From the NCBI GenBank assembly GCA_964394405.1, contig CAYMVY010000001.1, forward strand, positions 38,546-102,545: DNA of 64,000 nt, in the 5' to 3' direction. The notes under the pieces are model-generated. The model was not told the origin of the DNA. It saw nothing but the letters and a program-made list of their open reading frames with translations, and searched no databases. This stretch comes from an uncultured Gammaproteobacteria bacterium (GTDB lineage Bacteria; Patescibacteriota; Patescibacteriia; Magasanikbacterales; UBA922). Both the position numbers and the translations under genes were made by a program. The stretch's first letter is position 1. Each line of letters begins with the position of its first letter. Below are positions 3,844-58,725 of the stretch, piece by piece.

Positions 3844-4257
3844 TTATACTCCCTCATGTACCCGAATTGAATCTCCCACTTTGAGGGTCACGATCGCTTT
3901 CTTGGTATCAGAGCGTCTTCCAGAATATGCTCCAAATCGTACTTCCTTACCTTGCAAACGGATCATACGAACTTTCTGTGGAACCACACCATATACCGAA
4001 GCGATAGCTTTTTTTACATCAGTCTTGGTCGCATTCGAATGGACTACAAAGGTATATGAGCGAAAAGATTCTGCAATTGCTGCTTTTTCACTTGCGAGAG
4101 GTTTCAATAATACACGAAATGCTGCGCCTGCTTTTTTTGAAGGAGTGATAGCAGGTTCAGTATTTTTTGCAGCACGAACCTTGGGGGTGCGTGTAGCCTC
4201 GGTCTCCTCTGCCTTCTTCATCGTAGATTTTTTTGAAAACTTCTTAAGCAGACTCAT
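3844..4257 (-). CDS. rplW: 50S ribosomal protein L23 with N-terminal basic extension
   Basis: C-terminal 95 aa match L23 (YTFVVHSNATKTDVKKAIASVYGVVPQKV). The start may be the internal Met. Confidence 0.85.
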   Translation of the reverse strand: MSLLKKFSKKSTMKKAEETEATRTPKVRAAKNTEPAITPSKKAGAAFRVLLKPLASEKAAIAESFRSYTFVVHSNATKTDVKKAIASVYGVVPQKVRMIRLQGKEVRFGAYSGRRSDTKKAIVTLKVGDSIRVHEGV

Positions 4258-4261
4258 ATAA

Positions 4262-4891
4262 TTATTTTACAAATCGTTTTTCAAGTGCAGTAACTGCATC
4301 TGATGACATGATCACATATTGATGATGTAGTAAATCAACGACATTCACATCTGCTGCTCGGACGAGATCAATCTGTGGTACATTAGCAACAGCATTCACA
4401 AGCTCTGGAGTAAAATCTGAAACAATAAATACCGTACTCTTTCCACTTCCAGGCAATGCACTTCTAAACTGTGAGACTAGTGCAGCCTTGCCTTTGAAGT
4501 CAACAGATTCTACGACAAACAATCGACCATGTACGACTTTATCAGAAAAACATGATTTAACTGCTCCAATTTTCATTTTCTTATTAATTTTTTGAGTGTA
4601 GGTTCGCTCACTGAGAGGACCAAAAGTGATTCCTCCACCTCTCCACAATGGAGAGCGGATAGACCCGTGTCGTGCGCGACCAGTTCCCTTCTGTTTCCAA
4701 GGTTTCTTTCCTCCACCACGAACATCGCCTCGCATTTTGGTATGCGCCCATGCTTCTCGTACATTTGCTCGCATCGCAACATATACCTGGTGCACGAGTG
4801 AAGAATTTGGTTTTACGCTGAAGATATCTTCGCGTACCTCAAGATCTGATTTTTTTTCTCCAACTTGGTTGTATACTGGTAATGTAGCCAT
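4262..4891 (-). CDS. rplD: 50S ribosomal protein L4
   Basis: 209 aa L4/L1e family protein, positioned between L3 and L23. Confidence 0.9.
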   Translation of the reverse strand: MATLPVYNQVGEKKSDLEVREDIFSVKPNSSLVHQVYVAMRANVREAWAHTKMRGDVRGGGKKPWKQKGTGRARHGSIRSPLWRGGGITFGPLSERTYTQKINKKMKIGAVKSCFSDKVVHGRLFVVESVDFKGKAALVSQFRSALPGSGKSTVFIVSDFTPELVNAVANVPQIDLVRAADVNVVDLLHHQYVIMSSDAVTALEKRFVK

Positions 4892-8527: not shown

Positions 8528-8897
8528 CTGTTCTTTTTTTGGTATAAGAGTTACTGTGTGGAAAGCTAGTCCGATGAGGAGCAAGCGCTGGTGAATAATT
8601 CACCGCCCTTTCTCCTGACCGGACTTCTCTGTCCGCCAGGTTAGATCGCATTCGCGATCTTCATCTTCTACCGCCACACAAAGGAAAATACCATGCGCCT
8701 CAGGGTTGCAATCAAAAGGCCTGAATCACTCTTCGCCCTGTCCGTGGTCGCCTCCGGACTCATCCTGTCGATCGCAGGACTGTTCCGGAGCTGAACTTCG
8801 TCCGATCTTCGGCCCCCCTCCTCCGGGAGGGGTGGCCTATCGGACGAAAAAAACAAACCAAAAAAAACAAAACGCGATATTGCGTTTTTTTGTTTAT
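8528..8897 (+). ncRNA. Candidate structured ncRNA of about 370 nt with unknown identity
   Basis: Bounded by the promoter at 8493-8521 and an intrinsic terminator (aaaacgcgatattgcgttttttt, 8866-8897). About 57% GC in an AT-rich genome. Multiple nested GC helices, for example cgtccgat...ggcccccctcctccgggaggggtggcc...atcggacg and ctccgga...tccggag. No SD-linked ORF. Confidence 0.45.
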
Positions 8898-9331: not shown

Positions 9332-10835
<1,504 letters not shown>

Positions 10836-12252: not shown

Positions 12253-12684
12253 TCAGCCGAGCGTGCCCGCCAAGATCGGCGCGAAGAGCTTCTCGGGATC
12301 TTCGGACTCGACAGTGCCCTCACCCTTCTCCAGGTAGACGCGCATGCGCCCCGTGCGCTCGAGTGGAACGTCGTGCGCCAAGTAGAACACATCGACCTTG
12401 AAGAACCTCTCCTCGATCAGGTCACGGATCTGGCCGATCAGGAGCAACGCCCCCGGCTTCGGCTCGTAGTAGGAGATGCTCTCCACGAACAGCTCGAGCT
12501 GATTCGGGAAGATGCCACGCCCGTCGACACAGACCGTCATGGGCTGACGATCAGTGGTGTGGTAGTAGTCCCGGTGGGACACATAGATGTCCCAGATCCC
12601 CGAATTGTTCGAATTCGAGACGATCGGAAGGGTGACAAAATCTTTCCCCTCCTCCCCGACAGACACGTTGTCCAAAGCTCCCAT
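12253..12684 (-). CDS. Hypothetical protein A1 of GC-rich island A (paralog of the 58303-58725 protein)
   Basis: Internal Met preceded by the SD gtcgccAGGGGGttatcATG. About 55% GC. Shares the spaced motif EGxxF..LP...YYxxxDRxxxxVxDGxGxFxN with the island E protein. Confidence 0.6.
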   Translation of the reverse strand: MGALDNVSVGEEGKDFVTLPIVSNSNNSGIWDIYVSHRDYYHTTDRQPMTVCVDGRGIFPNQLELFVESISYYEPKPGALLLIGQIRDLIEERFFKVDVFYLAHDVPLERTGRMRVYLEKGEGTVESEDPEKLFAPILAGTLG

Positions 12685-12875
12685 GATAACCCCCTGGCGA
12701 CTGAAGAAAAACACGTGCTGGTGTCGCAAACCAGACAGAAAAAAATATCATACATAGTGAAAAATGTCAATAATAAAACAAAAAATCCTCTGAATAAAGG
12801 ATTGACCAATCCGCATTCACCCAAGCCGAAGCTCAGATGAATGCGGAACAGAGAACGTTGACCCACACACTGACC

Positions 12876-22800: not shown

Positions 22801-23206
22801 ATACACTCATTGCCCACAGATAATAAAACAAAAAACCCTTTTTTTCAAGAGTTCCTTGTATGACCCCAGAGAGATGCAGTACGAAATACTACTCCTAAAG
22901 ATATAGGTGGGTGGCCGCAACGCGAGCCCACGGGCTCGAGAAATATTGGCTTCCCAATGTAGTATGTTTGTAGAATAGTATATGTACTGTATCACTAAGT
23001 ACCAGGGTCAATTCTTAATATATCAAGAGGTACACAATTGTGCAAATACGACTCATCCACTGCCTAGAACATTCTAAATAATGGAGGAGAGACGACCAGA
23101 TGAGACAGGTCGCCGAGAAGCAAAAGAACAATAACGAAAACGCGATAACGCATAAGTCGGGATATCCCAACTCACACGTTACCACTTGGACCTCCCCTGA
23201 CTTCGA

Positions 23207-23406
23207 TCAAGAGTCGTGATTGCCCCGCTGCCGTTTGACCGGAGCTGGGACGGACACGACCTGGGACTCAAAGAGGGGGCGCCGTCGACATCCACGGATA
23301 GTCGCGGGGTCGAGGCGAGCCGTGTCACCACCCGAAGGAGTCGAGGACTTTTTCTTGGACTTGGGCAAATTCTTTGCCCACACTTGATACACATGATTTT
23401 CAGGCA
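23207..23406 (-). CDS. Small hypothetical protein of GC-rich island B (66 aa)
   Basis: SD ttctGAGGAtcgctATG; MPENHVYQVWAKNLPKSKKKSSTPSGG...; basic, GC-rich codons. Confidence 0.4.
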
Positions 23407-23693
23407 TAGCGATCCTCAGAAGGATGCTCGATTGAGTATTCTCAAACTTTGAGTACACTCGCACCAAGCGAAAGTCGGTCCAGACGAAATTCTTTCTTTG
23501 AAAAAACTTATTCTAAAAACATTGCATAAGAATACAAAAATAAAAAAAGCTTGTAAAGAATATTATTACTAATTCCTTACAAGTTATTCACAGATAGATC
23601 TGCCACTATCTTCCGATAATGAAAGACAATGGCAGATGGGCGGTCGACGAGTGGGCACTCATCGATCGCCCCGAGGAAAAGAACGGACGAAAC

Positions 23694-23910
23694 TCACGTA
23701 ACGGCATCAACCTGCTGAGCAGGCGCGTAAGCCGGTGTATACCAGCCAGACCTGTCAACAGTGATAGTTCGCTTGCAGACACACGTGACGCGGCAGCCAT
23801 CTCCACGTGCTTCCACGCTTTCAATGACACCAGCGCCACACGAACACTCGAAGGCCTGACCTTCTCGAATGCGATCAAGCCGACACATTCCTTTGAGTCC
23901 AATGGGCATG
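23694..23910 (-). CDS. Small Cys-rich protein of island B (71 aa)
   Basis: SD cacacAAGGAGagcgaccATG; MPIGLKGMCRLDRIREGQAFECSCGAGVIESVEARGDGCRVTCVCKR with six Cys, possibly a metal-binding knot. Confidence 0.5.
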
Positions 23911-24023
23911 GTCGCTCTCCTTGTGTGACGGGTGAACAAGACGAATGGACGCGGAAGTTGCGAGAGAAGCAACGCGAGAGCCAGAGTTGCCGGCTCAGCG
24001 CGTTACCACACTCATCTTGATAG

Positions 24024-24224
24024 TCAGTCGAGGCCGTACTTGTGACGCAACTCGATCCCCTCACGGAGCTCGAAGAACGGATCGGTGACGTACCTCGGTC
24101 GACGGTTGGGACCGCGATTCGAGTTGTACTTGTGCTTCGGCGGGAGAACCGCCTCCGGGGACTGGGTGGACGCAGTGTCGAGGTTCTGCTGCTGTGACGG
24201 CAGCTTGGAATCAGTTCCAGACAT
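24024..24224 (-). CDS. Small S/T/Q-rich protein of island B (66 aa), member of the MS-x-(T/S)...SP / RxRY..D..EL motif family
   Basis: SD cgAGGGAatgccATG; MSGTDSKLPSQQQNLDTASTQSPEAVLPP...NRRPRYVTDPFFELREGIELRHKYGLD. Confidence 0.5.
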   Translation of the reverse strand: MSGTDSKLPSQQQNLDTASTQSPEAVLPPKHKYNSNRGPNRRPRYVTDPFFELREGIELRHKYGLD

Positions 24225-24304
24225 GGCATTCCCTCGAAATTCTCTCGTGTGGCGCACGAGAGTTATTCGTCTTCCCAAGAATTCCCACCGTAGGAATACT
24301 TGTT

Positions 24305-24355
24305 CAAACGAGTTGCTGTAGGGACAAAAAATCTATCGACACAGCAACTCGTTTG
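24305..24355. repeat. Perfect 15-bp inverted repeat with 21-bp spacer (caaacgagttgctgt ... acagcaactcgtttg)
   Basis: Exact reverse-complement arms read directly from the sequence. Located between two small island B ORFs; no downstream T-tract. Confidence 0.7.
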
Positions 24356-24478
24356 TGACAAATATCCAACAAAATATATAAGGAACAAAACACTCTATTT
24401 CACCCCCTACTAAGTACATATTTTTTACTCAATAGGGGGTGAGCAACGCAGAGGACGATACGTTTTCACCCCACAGAT

Positions 24479-24655
24479 TCACCGAGTGGATGAGGGATCT
24501 CGGAACTTGTGGTTCAGATGATCCTTGTTCGGACGGAGGAGCGACAGGAGAAGCTCTTCGTCGATCTCGTCATAGCGACGACGAGAAGAGAACGGTTCGG
24601 TAGTCGGCGTGGGCGCGACAGGCTCTGGGGGACGGGGAGATTGAGTATCAGACAT
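24479..24655 (-). CDS. Small S/T/P-rich protein of island B (58 aa), same family as 24024-24224
   Basis: GGAG 9 nt upstream; MSDTQSPRPPEPVAPTPTTEPFSSRRRYDEIDEELLLSLLRPNKDHLNHKF. Shares RxRY-D-EL-L-LR with the 24024 ORF. Confidence 0.45.
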   Translation of the reverse strand: MSDTQSPRPPEPVAPTPTTEPFSSRRRYDEIDEELLLSLLRPNKDHLNHKFRDPSSTR

Positions 24656-24704
24656 GGTAGACGGCTCCATTCTAGAGTGGAATGATTCTCTGGGCGAAGA
24701 GGCA

Positions 24705-24740
24705 TTGATCTTGAGGCGAGTTCGAATCTATACACAATTT
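24705..24740 (-). promoter_or_regulatory. Putative promoter (TTGAAT-N18-TGTATAGAT, extended -10) for island B small ORFs
   Basis: The minus strand reads gTTTGAATgtatatatactgaaattgTGTATAGATtcg. Confidence 0.3.
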
Positions 24741-28770: not shown

Positions 28771-29256
28771 TTACCCGTCGACCAATTCGATGGTGCTCTC
28801 GTTGTCCACCTGGACATAGATGGTTCGAAAGTAGCCCTGAGGAGCCCATCGCCCCGTCACGAGAACTTCCTGAACAATCGAATACCAGTTGCGATCACCG
28901 AAAAGCACAGTCCAGACACGCTTCCTCACTTCGTTCATGTGGTACGGTCGTGGTACCTGCGGACGCCGTTGGCCCATACGCAGATGCCAGTAATCATACT
29001 TCTCTTCCGAGCCCTGCCAGCAGACGTCGACCGTCACTCGTCTGAAGTAGCCCACAGGGGCGCACTCCTCGACGAGAAGGATGACGACTTCAAACGGGGT
29101 CATGTTTCCGAAGAGAGTGTGCCATGCCTCATGATACCGACGAGCGAGACGAACCAGATTGTCTGGTTGTGGCATACCCTTCTTACAGCGTGAACGTGGC
29201 ACCTTGTGATGCGACGTCATTTGTGACGGATCATCCGACTTCGCACGTTTTCCCAT
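28771..29256 (-). CDS. HNH-nuclease-like protein with degenerate zinc ligands, in GC-rich island C
   Basis: SD gctcGAGAGGGcacaaATG; HHKVPRSRCKKGMPQPDNLVRLARRYHEAWH matches HH..P.S.GG....NL..LC..CH...H, with the Cys ligands replaced by A and Y. About 58% GC. Confidence 0.5.
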   Translation of the reverse strand: MGKRAKSDDPSQMTSHHKVPRSRCKKGMPQPDNLVRLARRYHEAWHTLFGNMTPFEVVILLVEECAPVGYFRRVTVDVCWQGSEEKYDYWHLRMGQRRPQVPRPYHMNEVRKRVWTVLFGDRNWYSIVQEVLVTGRWAPQGYFRTIYVQVDNESTIELVDG

Positions 29257-29344
29257 TTGTGCCCTCTCGAGCAAAAGGACAAACACTTAAACAATCATAA
29301 CCCTGATTGAAAAAAAACACAACTTCTGTTAGTGTTAGCAACAT

Positions 29345-30980: not shown

Positions 30981-31009
30981 TTGACAAGCACGCAGTTCTC
31001 GTGTAGACT
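30981..31009 (+). promoter_or_regulatory. Consensus-like sigma70 promoter (TTGACA-N17-TAGACT) of GC-rich island D
   Basis: The plus strand reads cTTGACAagcacgcagttctcgtgTAGACTg. Confidence 0.5.
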
Positions 31010-31071
31010 GTCTCGGTCTCTAAAAAGACGTATACGGAAGTATACGTTTTGCGTTCTAGGAGGAACGAGTC

Positions 31072-31275
31072 ATGCAACACAACCGTCACACGCAACGCCC
31101 CCACCAACCCAACACCCATCTACCCGCCCCGAGTCTGCAGGCACGCGTCCAAGCGTTCGCCTGGCGCACTGCAGCACGAATCGTGCTCCCGCTCTTCGTC
31201 ATGGGACTCCGGAAATCGGAACGCCCACCACAGCGAAACACGGTGACCGATCAGGGTCACGGGCGACGTCTGTAG
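31072..31275 (+). CDS. Small hypothetical protein of island D (67 aa) with a hydrophobic segment
   Basis: Strong SD ctAGGAGGAacgagtcATG. MQHNRHTQRPHQPNTHLPAPSLQARVQAFAWRTAARIVLPLFVMGL... Flanked by its own promoter and terminator. Confidence 0.5.
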   Translation: MQHNRHTQRPHQPNTHLPAPSLQARVQAFAWRTAARIVLPLFVMGLRKSERPPQRNTVTDQGHGRRL

Positions 31276-31326
31276 TCGCGAGTGCGATTCGACGTGGTGC
31301 GGGAGGACAGAGAGATAAAAATCAAA

Positions 31327-31398
31327 GACCACCCGCTACCACATGATATTCTAAACAATTGGAATATCGTGTGGGAGAATCCGGGTGGTTTTTGTTTT
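31327..31398. terminator. Nested-hairpin bidirectional terminator (island D ORF and queA)
   Basis: Outer stem accacccg/cgggtggt plus tttttgtttt; inner stem ccacatgatattc/gaatatcgtgtgg. Confidence 0.5.
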
Positions 31399-33860: not shown

Positions 33861-34433
33861 CTATAAATGATACTTTTTCAATTCTCGTTCACGCACTCGG
33901 TAATCCGGTAATATATGAGAAACTTCTCTCCAAAATTGTGCCGAATGATTATGGTGCCGCAAGTGACAGAGTTCATGTACCACTACATAATCCCGCAAAT
34001 CTTCAGATAAAAAAATAAGCTTATAATTAAAATTCAAATTTTCTTTGGTAGAACAACTCCCCCACCTACTCGACGTATTTTTGATAGAAATCCGTTTGAA
34101 GGTAAATCCATGCAACTGAGCAAAATGCTTTACCCGCTCAGTAATTATTTTTTTTGCTCGGGCTTTATTCGCATGATATGAAAACTTCGGACCAGAAAAT
34201 TGAGATTTGGTTACAGCTTCCAGTTTTTTCAACACTCCCTCAATCCATTCGTGCTTTGATCGTACAAATTTCTCAATAACTGTTTTTGGTACCAGCTTTG
34301 GTGCAGTGACTCGCACTTTGCCTTTGGAGTTTACAGACAACGTGATGCGACGCAACCGTGCGCGTCTGTGTAATGAATATTCCATAAAATTCAATTTGAA
34401 GGGGGACGACGTATCGCCCCCCCTCCCAGTCAT
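33861..34433 (-). CDS. DUF45/YgjP-family zinc metallohydrolase (HExxH)
   Basis: VVHELCHLRHHNH motif. The start may be at 34433 (ATGA overlap with the upstream small ORF) or at the internal MEYSL (34385). Confidence 0.7.
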   Translation of the reverse strand: MTGRGGDTSSPFKLNFMEYSLHRRARLRRITLSVNSKGKVRVTAPKLVPKTVIEKFVRSKHEWIEGVLKKLEAVTKSQFSGPKFSYHANKARAKKIITERVKHFAQLHGFTFKRISIKNTSSRWGSCSTKENLNFNYKLIFLSEDLRDYVVVHELCHLRHHNHSAQFWREVSHILPDYRVRERELKKYHL

Positions 34434-34603
34434 CGATGTCGAAGTCGCACCACCCTACCAAAGGCAACGAAGGTGACCACAGTATGAGGGGCACTACACT
34501 TTTTGGGGGCAGGATCCTGCGGTGACATCCTGTTGAGGAGCGCCTGAATCCTCTCAGGTGAGATGATCTGATGTCCGACCGAATCAACGCCAATATTTCC
34601 CAT
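34430..34603 (-). CDS. Small GC-rich ORF (57 aa), translationally coupled to the DUF45 gene
   Basis: Strong SD gtctAGGAGGtcgtataATG. MGNIGVDSVGHQIISPERIQALLNRMSPQDPAPKK... The stop TGA overlaps the downstream ATG as ATGA. About 57% GC. Confidence 0.4.
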   Translation of the reverse strand: MGNIGVDSVGHQIISPERIQALLNRMSPQDPAPKKCSAPHTVVTFVAFGRVVRLRHR

Positions 34604-57845: not shown

Positions 57846-58049
57846 CTAGAACCCGAAACGGGAGCGGATCCAGTTCCACACACCCTTGGAGGGCTGCTGA
57901 TTGGACGGGGTGACCGCCGTGCTCTTCTGGTCGGGAGTGGCGAGCGCACGCAAGATGTCGGCGTCGGGCGACGGGGACACCTTGAGATTGCTGTTCGACG
58001 AGGTCGACTGGCGGAGACGGGACTGACGGAGTTCCCTGGAGTTGGACAT
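57846..58049 (-). CDS. Small S/T-rich protein E2 of GC-rich island E (68 aa), similar in composition to island B small proteins
   Basis: MSNSRELRQSRLRQSTSSNSNLKVSPSPDADILRALATPDQKSTAVTPSNQQPSKGVWNWIRSRFGF. Its own promoter lies upstream; the first ATG of the track ORF lies upstream of the predicted TSS. Confidence 0.45.
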   Translation of the reverse strand: MSNSRELRQSRLRQSTSSNSNLKVSPSPDADILRALATPDQKSTAVTPSNQQPSKGVWNWIRSRFGF

Positions 58050-58155
58050 CGTGGCACCATTTCCGGAGCGAGCGAATAAGAGCGCCGAGACTGACGCAAT
58101 ACTGCTACACTTCGGAGTTAAGAGCCACGAAACAAATAATTTTGAGTATCTACAC

Positions 58156-58184
58156 AATCTACCCTATAATATATGTTTTGTCAA
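58156..58184 (-). promoter_or_regulatory. sigma70 promoter (TTGACA-N17-TAGATT) for the E2 ORF
   Basis: The minus strand reads gaTTGACAaaacatatattatagggTAGATTgtg. Confidence 0.45.
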
Positions 58185-58302: not shown

Positions 58303-58725
58303 TCAGACGCTCGAGGCGAGCATCTTCTTCCCCACCTCTTCGTCGGTCGCGCGCCGGACGCAGGCGTAGAGGGTATCGACCCACACGACGGTCACGTGGG
58401 ACACACCAGGGACGAGTCCTTCGGGTGCGAACATCCGACACGTGCGGGAGCCGCCCGGATTCTTGAAGTAGAACCAGACGCCACCATCCTCGACCCCATG
58501 CCTACGGTCCCGACAGAGCGGGTAATAGACCGGCGTCTCCGGATACTTGTTCGCCTTGTTGCTCGGGAGCGACCGCGCCTCGGCCGGCAGGAGGAAGGTC
58601 AAGCCTTCCTTGAGAAGAACGGACGGCGGTCCGTTGTCCACCGGGATGTCGAGGTGATGGAACACCTCCTTCCCACTCAGATGGCTCATCACCACCTCGG
58701 GCGTATCATCTTCAGAGACCCACAT
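58303..58725 (-). CDS. Hypothetical protein E1 of GC-rich island E (140 aa), paralog of 12253-12684
   Basis: SD acAAGGGGGtcttacATG. Shares EGLTFLLP...YYPLCRDRRHGVEDGGVWFYFKN with island A's EGKDFVTLP...YYHTTDRQPMTVCVDGRGIFPN. Confidence 0.6.
   Translation of the reverse strand: MWVSEDDTPEVVMSHLSGKEVFHHLDIPVDNGPPSVLLKEGLTFLLPAEARSLPSNKANKYPETPVYYPLCRDRRHGVEDGGVWFYFKNPGGSRTCRMFAPEGLVPGVSHVTVVWVDTLYACVRRATDEEVGKKMLASSV

Follow-up and report, generated by a model that had tools for sequence, protein, structure and literature searches.

A probable small-protein gene with constrained untranslated regions at the rlmH/queA junction of Candidatus Magasanikbacteria

The 64,000-nt stretch of DNA analyzed here (contig CAYMVY010000001.1, positions 38,546 to 102,545; hereafter the window) carries a 418-nt cassette between the convergent genes rlmH and queA. 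We propose that this cassette is probably a small-protein gene with a transcript of its own, and one of a narrow orphan family found in Candidatus Magasanikbacteria (Patescibacteria, or candidate phyla radiation, CPR) that occupied the rlmH/queA junction before these species diverged. A preliminary description of the window had seen here a complete unit of promoter, Shine–Dalgarno sequence (SD), open reading frame (ORF) and terminator for a 67-aa protein, and comparative evidence now backs that reading: the promoter TTGACA-N17-TAGACT, the SD AGGAGGA placed 7 nt before the ATG, the ORF and the nested double-hairpin terminator are all present where they had been placed. The single-sequence signals are not significant alone, and it is the comparison with 11 homologous cassettes that gives them significance; within the window, three promoter-like sites are found in 1.6 kb against 3.1 expected, which is chance level.

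Relatives of the cassette were collected in several ways. Scanning one genome per species with queA gave 80 loci, almost all of which carry the label Candidatus Magasanikbacteria or Patescibacteria, and the loci in which rlmH converges on queA contained seven cassettes (L003, L004, L006, L008, L009, L010 and L013, where L numbers denote loci); profile searches and contig look-ups added L086–L091. The gene order tgt-rlmH-[cassette]-queA is common to L002–L004, L006, L008–L010, L013 and L086–L091. In L005, whose queA is 90% identical, the spacer (1241–1433) is masked by N, and this locus stands outside the count of cassette presence and absence. Many records with queA 80–90% identical to that of this Magasanikbacteria genome (L004, L005, L006, L008, L009 and others) are titled “uncultured Gammaproteobacteria bacterium”, which looks like mislabelled taxonomy of metagenome-assembled genomes.

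The four-fold degenerate sites of queA differ by 56–66% between the window and L004–L013 and are thus saturated. Over the same comparisons the cassette leader is 76–90% identical and the 3′ module 72–90%, and against the closest relative, L003, the values are 96% and 81%, respectively; past this closest relative, no DNA alignment of the coding sequences is possible. As judged by these comparisons, the leader and the 3′ module are more constrained than the coding sequence, and the cassette appears to be an old resident of the rlmH/queA junction that predates the divergence of these species and has been kept vertically.

The family is small. A protein search with the 67-aa query against 5.8 billion proteins returned the peptide itself and one 72-aa relative (63% identity), which sits in a tgt-rlmH-[ORF]-queA arrangement, and an exhaustive hidden Markov model search of 1.84 billion representatives returned six clusters. 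Because there are just six, we regard the family as a narrow orphan. The related peptides recovered by searches are P0001–P0010. No member matches a family in Pfam, NCBIfam, PADLOC or PHROGs at E ≤ 0.1, a metagenome scan with the leader pattern gave only a duplicate of L013 and two chance matches, and blastn found no paralogous cassette in the window. Nothing relevant on small proteins of Magasanikbacteria or Patescibacteria was found in the searchable literature, and in most relatives the small ORF has no gene call in databases.

Upstream, the promoter begins 3 nt past the rlmH stop codon, and its geometry is kept in all 12 cassettes, that is, the window and its 11 homologs. The −35 hexamer never varies, and the spacer keeps a length of 17 nt with a freely variable sequence; the −10 hexamer reads TAGACT, TAAACT, TACACT or TATAGT, such that T1, A2 and T6 are kept (TAnnnT) and changes are confined to the tolerant middle positions. 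The leader hairpin forms 10 pairs in the RNAalifold consensus, one of which is U-A, U·G or C-G in different lineages, and on the − strand it is scored as terminator-like. The hairpin that presents the SD has a consensus stem of 5 bp, in which one pair is compensatory, and is partly blurred by indels. G·U cells outnumber A·C cells by 17 to 4 in the leader and by 17 to 3 in the 3′ module, which argues that both sets of structures are tuned to the RNA of the + strand, on which the ORF lies. In 567 kb of related loci plus the window, the leader covariance model (R1) matches orthologous cassettes only.

A G·U variant of the leader hairpin (GTATGCG) creates an ATG inside the hairpin, which is in frame with the ORF in L008 and L010. 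Gene callers used this ATG or sites further upstream, giving P0003–P0006 false N-terminal extensions of 10–38 aa. In L009 the hairpin ATG runs into a stop codon, and it is therefore not the true start.

In the window, ORFs of 51–121 aa are found in all frames and on both strands of the GC-rich stretch. In 12 of 12 cassettes, an ORF of 52–74 aa opens 4–11 nt past the SD and stops before the 3′ module, and the substitutions within it are of coding type. Differences at codon positions 1/2/3 number 16/13/28 between the window and L003 (P = 0.01), 9/6/20 between L008 and L009 (P = 0.003) and 19/10/31 between L004 and L010 (P = 0.003). Between the window and L002 the first 48 codons differ by 7/3/19, with 14 codons changed only synonymously, including CGC to AGA. 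An N-terminal motif resembling PNTxL recurs in the peptides, together with a core, (L/I)GxxxGxRxLAxMMGxxLSVxL, that has diverged further in the lineage of the window, and their net charge lies between +7 and +11 throughout the family. Because of the third-position excess in three pairs, the common motif and the high positive charge, we take the ORF to be translated and, as far as such comparisons indicate, to be fast-evolving under purifying selection. A role as a sensor of queuosine-tRNA status, with tgt and queA as neighbours, was considered and rejected: His, Asn, Asp and Tyr codons are depleted in the ORF (8.7% versus 12–19% in the neighbours).

The 67-aa peptide has a disordered polar N-terminus, one long helix and a basic tail. 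The AlphaFold model (predicted local distance difference test score, pLDDT, 62) places a helix at residues 22–48 with pLDDT of roughly 77 and disordered ends. A hydrophobic segment had been noted earlier; the stretch is real, but its best 19-residue Kyte–Doolittle mean of 1.39 is below the usual transmembrane threshold, which none of the ten members tested reaches (0.5–1.55). At the RNA level, the first 20 codons (31072–31131) have a C fraction of 0.30–0.53 and a G fraction of 0.10–0.22 in every homolog, whereas G and C are about equal over the remaining codons. The predicted fold leaves this C-rich start unpaired, as would be expected if selection keeps the site of translation initiation open.

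Downstream of the ORF, the 3′ module comprises a long nested hairpin and, ahead of it, a purine-rich element (Table 1). The consensus hairpin has 29–30 pairs, four of them with compensatory changes, and its G·U pairs fit the + strand RNA only; 94.8% of alignment cells pair, compared with at most 51.5% in slid controls, and the covariation score is reached by 5 of 500 shuffles. A covariance model of the module (R2) also matches L014, L065 and L038, all without the small ORF. In L014 the long hairpin directly follows the rlmH stop codon, with neither small ORF nor candidate antiterminator element, and L017 has only a promoter remnant followed by a related hairpin. The occurrence of the hairpin without the small ORF in L014 marks it as the older terminator at rlmH/queA. 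In L012 and L018 the slot holds an unrelated ORF for a small membrane peptide (Kyte–Doolittle 2.1–2.8), with its own TTGAC-type promoter, SD and a related long hairpin (1458–1834 and 4195–4569, reverse strand, respectively); the peptides, of 41 and 33 aa, are single-pass with a charged tail and toxin-like in shape. In L011, a 77-nt rlmH-queA spacer holds a simple terminator only. Taken together, these loci indicate that the small-gene slot before the hairpin is old and its content variable.

The purine-rich element can pair with the terminator 5′ arm in a duplex of about 12 bp and −21.4 kcal/mol in the window. With the 3′ arm left out, a state passed through during transcription, the duplex is found in 11 of 11 homologs, at −17 to −21 kcal/mol in nine and −11 in L006/L087, and it beats shuffled upstream segments in all 11 (z −1.9 to −4.9), with 0 of 500 shuffles reaching it in five. 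For the base that bulges from the terminator (A or G), the element has a matching U or C, and in L006/L087 a differing 5′ arm is accompanied by a matching change in the element. In a MAFFT alignment, 78.7% of the cells of this alternative helix pair, versus at most 54.6% in slid controls. Where the element lies 3–8 nt from the stop codon, a terminating ribosome would cover it.

Table 1. Features of the cassette and its borders (window coordinates; MFE, minimum free energy; GC3, GC content at third codon positions).
Feature	Coordinates	Strand	Details
rlmH stop codon	30975–30977		SPOUT methyltransferase, Pfam E = 9e-51
sigma-70-type promoter	30981–31009	+	−35 TTGACA 30981–30986, 17-nt spacer, −10 TAGACT 31004–31009; 10/12 consensus matches
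CGGTCTC motif	31014–31020	+	at or near the transcript 5′ end; invariant in 10/10 aligned leaders plus L090 and L091
Leader hairpin	31026–31049	+	10-bp stem AGACGTATAC / GTATACGTTT, GGAA loop, A-run and T-run flanks
SD-presenting hairpin	31052–31067	+	CGTTC / GAACG; AGGAGGA 31058–31064 in loop and 3′ arm; centroid fold
Coding sequence, 67-aa peptide	31072–31275	+	GC 63%, GC3 0.66, net charge +9
Purine-rich element GTGGTGCGGGAGGA	31294–31307	+	complementary to terminator 5′ arm 31329–31342; candidate antiterminator
Nested hairpin and T-run	31324–31398	both	predicted bidirectional intrinsic terminator shared with convergent queA; A-run on other side; MFE fold
Terminator hairpin	31324–31393		
Outer stem	31328–31335 with 31382–31389		ACCACCCG with CGGGTGGT
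Inner stem	31339–31354 with 31359–31374		13–16 bp
T-run	31389–31398		
queA stop codon	31397–31399		convergent; Pfam E = 1e-126; about 420 nt from the rlmH stop codon

The base composition of the cassette is uneven. The segment, earlier put at about 58% GC, measures 54.5% against 41.7% for the window, and the excess is confined to the ORF (63.2%), with 46% in promoter plus leader and 46% in the 3′ untranslated region (UTR). GC3 of the ORF is 0.55–0.82 in all lineages versus 0.27–0.34 in the flanking genes, and because neutral sites are saturated over this divergence, the high GC3 must have been maintained and is not a leftover of recent transfer. Folding of the coding region was tried as the cause and rejected: in nine transcripts the native sequence is not consistently stabler than dinucleotide-shuffled or synonymous-codon-permuted versions. 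The C-rich, G-poor start fits an unstructured initiation region and does not account for the whole ORF. Candidate causes are selection for general mRNA stability, selection for slow translation through host-rare codons, and GC-biased gene conversion.

Other GC-rich orphan ORFs are found in the window at 12253–12729 (−), 57846–58157 (−), 58303–58725 (−), 23129–24730 and 34273–34593 (−); their GC3 is 0.56–0.82, long ORFs having a median of 0.36, and none has a Pfam family. The phenomenon is therefore wider than the cassette, and GC-rich, clade-restricted orphan genes seem to be recurrent in the host genome. The ORF at 12253–12729 encodes 158 aa with GC3 of 0.82 and has four relatives only (61–64% identity) among the 5.8 billion proteins. 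Just upstream of tgt, a GC-rich ORF of 171 aa (28771–29286, −) contains an HNH-like motif (SHHKVPRSRCKKG...N..L....H..WH), for which the Pfam HNH match is marginal (E = 0.22).

Based on these observations, we propose the following model. The near-consensus sigma-70 promoter would give an mRNA of about 380 nt, whose leader of about 55 nt would fold into the stable conserved hairpin and then the small hairpin displaying the strong SD. For the leader hairpin we infer possible roles as a 5′ mRNA stabiliser, as a weak terminator of tgt-rlmH read-through and as a terminator of antisense transcripts. The coding start would be unstructured because it is C-rich and G-poor, and the ORF would yield a strongly cationic peptide built around one long helix. 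The transcript would stop at the long hairpin, which would double as the queA terminator. The element past the stop codon would compete with the terminator 3′ arm for the 5′ arm, and termination, hence antisense read-through into queA, may depend on events at the end of the ORF. In the downstream direction the + strand offers nothing but antisense to queA and to a PIF1-like helicase gene, so that read-through would yield queA antisense RNA. The peptide may bind a polyanion, whether RNA, the ribosome, DNA or a membrane surface, and its elaborate RNA-level control could be explained if the product is, as we propose, dosage-sensitive. Our best guess for its role is a tightly controlled helix that binds nucleic acid, the ribosome or the membrane surface; a toxin-like or regulatory-RNA role is less likely. 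There is a small chance that the cassette is a dual-function unit, in which the peptide is combined with the 3′ module as a gated bidirectional terminator and the element at 31294–31307 chooses between stopping and queA antisense.

Several points weigh against the small-protein gene and the control proposed for it. Transcription, translation and termination are read from sequence alone, and the biochemical role is guessed from charge and helix alone. The pair L006/L087 has no third-position excess (7/11/8), and the C-terminal ~20 codons of the window diverge from L002 through frame-shifting indels, which suggests that the tail is poorly constrained. No explanation of the maintained high GC3 is confirmed: when the UTRs are kept constant, folding of the coding region scatters between z +1.2 and −2.9 relative to synonymous-codon permutations. 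In the alternative helix there is one covarying pair only and 32 of 500 shuffles reach its score, and for these reasons we regard the candidate antiterminator as suggestive and not proven. The distance from stop codon to element is 3–8 nt in eight cassettes and 17–19 nt in three, including the window, and in L090 it is the element itself that the post-stop sequence pairs with; both points make it doubtful that a ribosome-coupled switch works uniformly across the cassettes.

Four other explanations have to be weighed against a small-protein gene. If the conserved 5′ and 3′ modules were the main function, acting through base-pairing, protein binding or a gated terminator over queA, the cassette would be a dual-function or mainly regulatory RNA and the peptide secondary. 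The far better conservation of leader and 3′ module than of the coding region, the antiterminator-like element conserved in the 3′ UTR and the presence of queA antisense alone downstream are all in keeping with this. We nevertheless consider it unlikely, since the ORF is undisrupted in the 12 cassettes with coding-type substitutions and kept motif and charge, covariation in the alternative helix is weak, no targets have been identified and the leader model R1 is absent elsewhere in the sequences searched. A peptide toxin of type I toxin–antitoxin style, restrained by RNA structure together with an antisense RNA (for example queA read-through ending at the leader hairpin, or the overlapping queA 3′ end), would account for a small ORF whose promoter and SD are very strong, for the structured UTRs and for the two bidirectional terminator-like hairpins; in L012 and L018 the same slot encodes classic single-pass membrane peptides, and host-rare codons could limit peptide yield. 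This explanation is distinctly unlikely given that the peptides stay below the transmembrane threshold and that the cassette is single-copy in the window without a PADLOC match. Further, no − strand promoter-like site was found in the cassette by scanning or in the conserved modules by inspection, although CPR promoters may differ. A hok-like pairing of the 5′ GGUCUC with GAGAC/GAGAU in the 3′ UTR was also rejected, being at chance level (z +0.4 to −1.4 versus shuffles); by inspection, a flanking position pairs in 7 of 11 sequences.

The preliminary description took the cassette for an inserted, compositionally foreign island, that is, a micro-cassette acquired recently by horizontal transfer. 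The composition of the ORF, with 63% GC and a GC3 of 0.66 where its flanking genes have 0.29–0.34, the absence of the cassette from L011 and from L014 (hairpin only) and the further GC-rich orphan ORFs in the window all speak for such an origin. The rlmH-queA spacer, for which a short form in relatives had been suggested as a check, is indeed short in L011, but the cassette occupies the same slot in at least 10 relatives whose queA sites are saturated, with leader and terminator in common. The UTRs have near-native GC, and high GC3 is found in every lineage and does not decay; the relatives carry the same non-native GC, and not the sequence at native GC. No relative of the cassette was found among viral contigs, phages and plasmids, nor outside the clade in the two large protein searches. 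At the borders no consistent target-site duplication is seen: the cassette lies between copies of AGACC in the window and of AAACC in L004, and by inspection the pattern fails in most relatives. Recent foreign origin is thus highly unlikely. Lastly, the ORF might be a chance product of a GC-rich non-coding structured RNA gene. A GC-rich island in an AT-rich genome frequently turns out to be an RNA gene, each strand of the cassette folds much better than its shuffles (z = −6.0 and −5.5), and ORFs occur in all frames. These z-scores are due to the two UTR hairpins, however, and the central region is not conserved as RNA while its open frame shows coding-type substitutions. At Rfam gathering thresholds the window contains a 16S rRNA and two tRNAs only, with no match in the cassette, the preQ1 riboswitch included; a permissive Rfam search of the region gave miRNA-model noise on the hairpin (13–22 bits versus cut-offs of 60–200), and ARAGORN found neither tRNA nor tmRNA at the cassette. 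The RNA gene is largely refuted and scarcely credible.

With respect to other RNA features of the window, the 16S rRNA gene (9332–10835, −) is complete, and no 23S rRNA lies within the 64 kb. Just downstream of the 16S gene, a 286-nt stretch (8603–8888) of 54% GC has no match to an Rfam family or tRNA.

Hardly any small protein of the CPR/Patescibacteria has been characterised, and the cassette fares badly under automated annotation. Three of its properties are unusual and testable: (i) the UTRs are more constrained than the protein, (ii) codon usage runs opposite to the genome bias and is kept across saturated divergence, and (iii) a possible antiterminator precedes the terminator shared with queA. 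If the terminator is gated, the output of a small gene would be tied to how strongly a tRNA-modification enzyme is expressed in a minimal CPR genome, GC-rich host-atypical codons would be kept for translation pace or RNA stability, and compact antisense control would have been built from a small gene; if the gating is wrong, the cassette is one more lineage-specific small protein. It also follows that GC-rich islands in the host genome need not be foreign DNA.

Finally, the cassette can be compared with known systems. Type I toxin mRNAs, such as hok/sok, fst/RNAII, txpA/RatA and bsrG/SR4, likewise carry a small ORF on a highly structured mRNA, and a bidirectional terminator is shared with a convergent transcript; membrane-peptide ORFs are found in the cassette slot of neighbouring lineages. 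Unlike these toxins, the cassette peptide lacks a transmembrane segment, neither an antisense promoter nor a 5′–3′ fold-back was detected, and the cassette is single-copy, chromosomal and placed between housekeeping genes. Dual-function RNAs that encode a small peptide include RNAIII/delta-haemolysin, SgrS/SgrT and SR1/SR1P, and with these the cassette has in common RNA segments more constrained than the ORF and a short helical peptide. It differs in having no predicted base-pairing targets, and its conserved parts are the leader hairpin and the terminator region, without recognisable seeds.

Ribosome-dependent transcription attenuators are exemplified by the trp leader and pyrBI, and a riboswitch-controlled antisense RNA opposes the ubiG-mccBA operon in Clostridium acetobutylicum. 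As in these systems, a short ORF is followed by mutually exclusive candidate antiterminator and terminator pairings, and read-through would oppose a convergent gene. In contrast to attenuators, the cassette has no downstream genes on the same strand, its ORF specifies a conserved peptide instead of serving as a codon-run sensor, the stop-to-element distance is non-uniform and covariation is weak. Compared with stand-alone bacterial small ORFs (<~70 aa), the cassette stands apart in that its UTRs outconserve the protein, its codons are GC-rich in AT-rich genomes and its family is unannotated. The resemblance lies in a sigma-70-type promoter of its own, a strong SD, a short ORF and a hairpin with U-run, and also in a narrow distribution, fast evolution and a place between convergent housekeeping genes.

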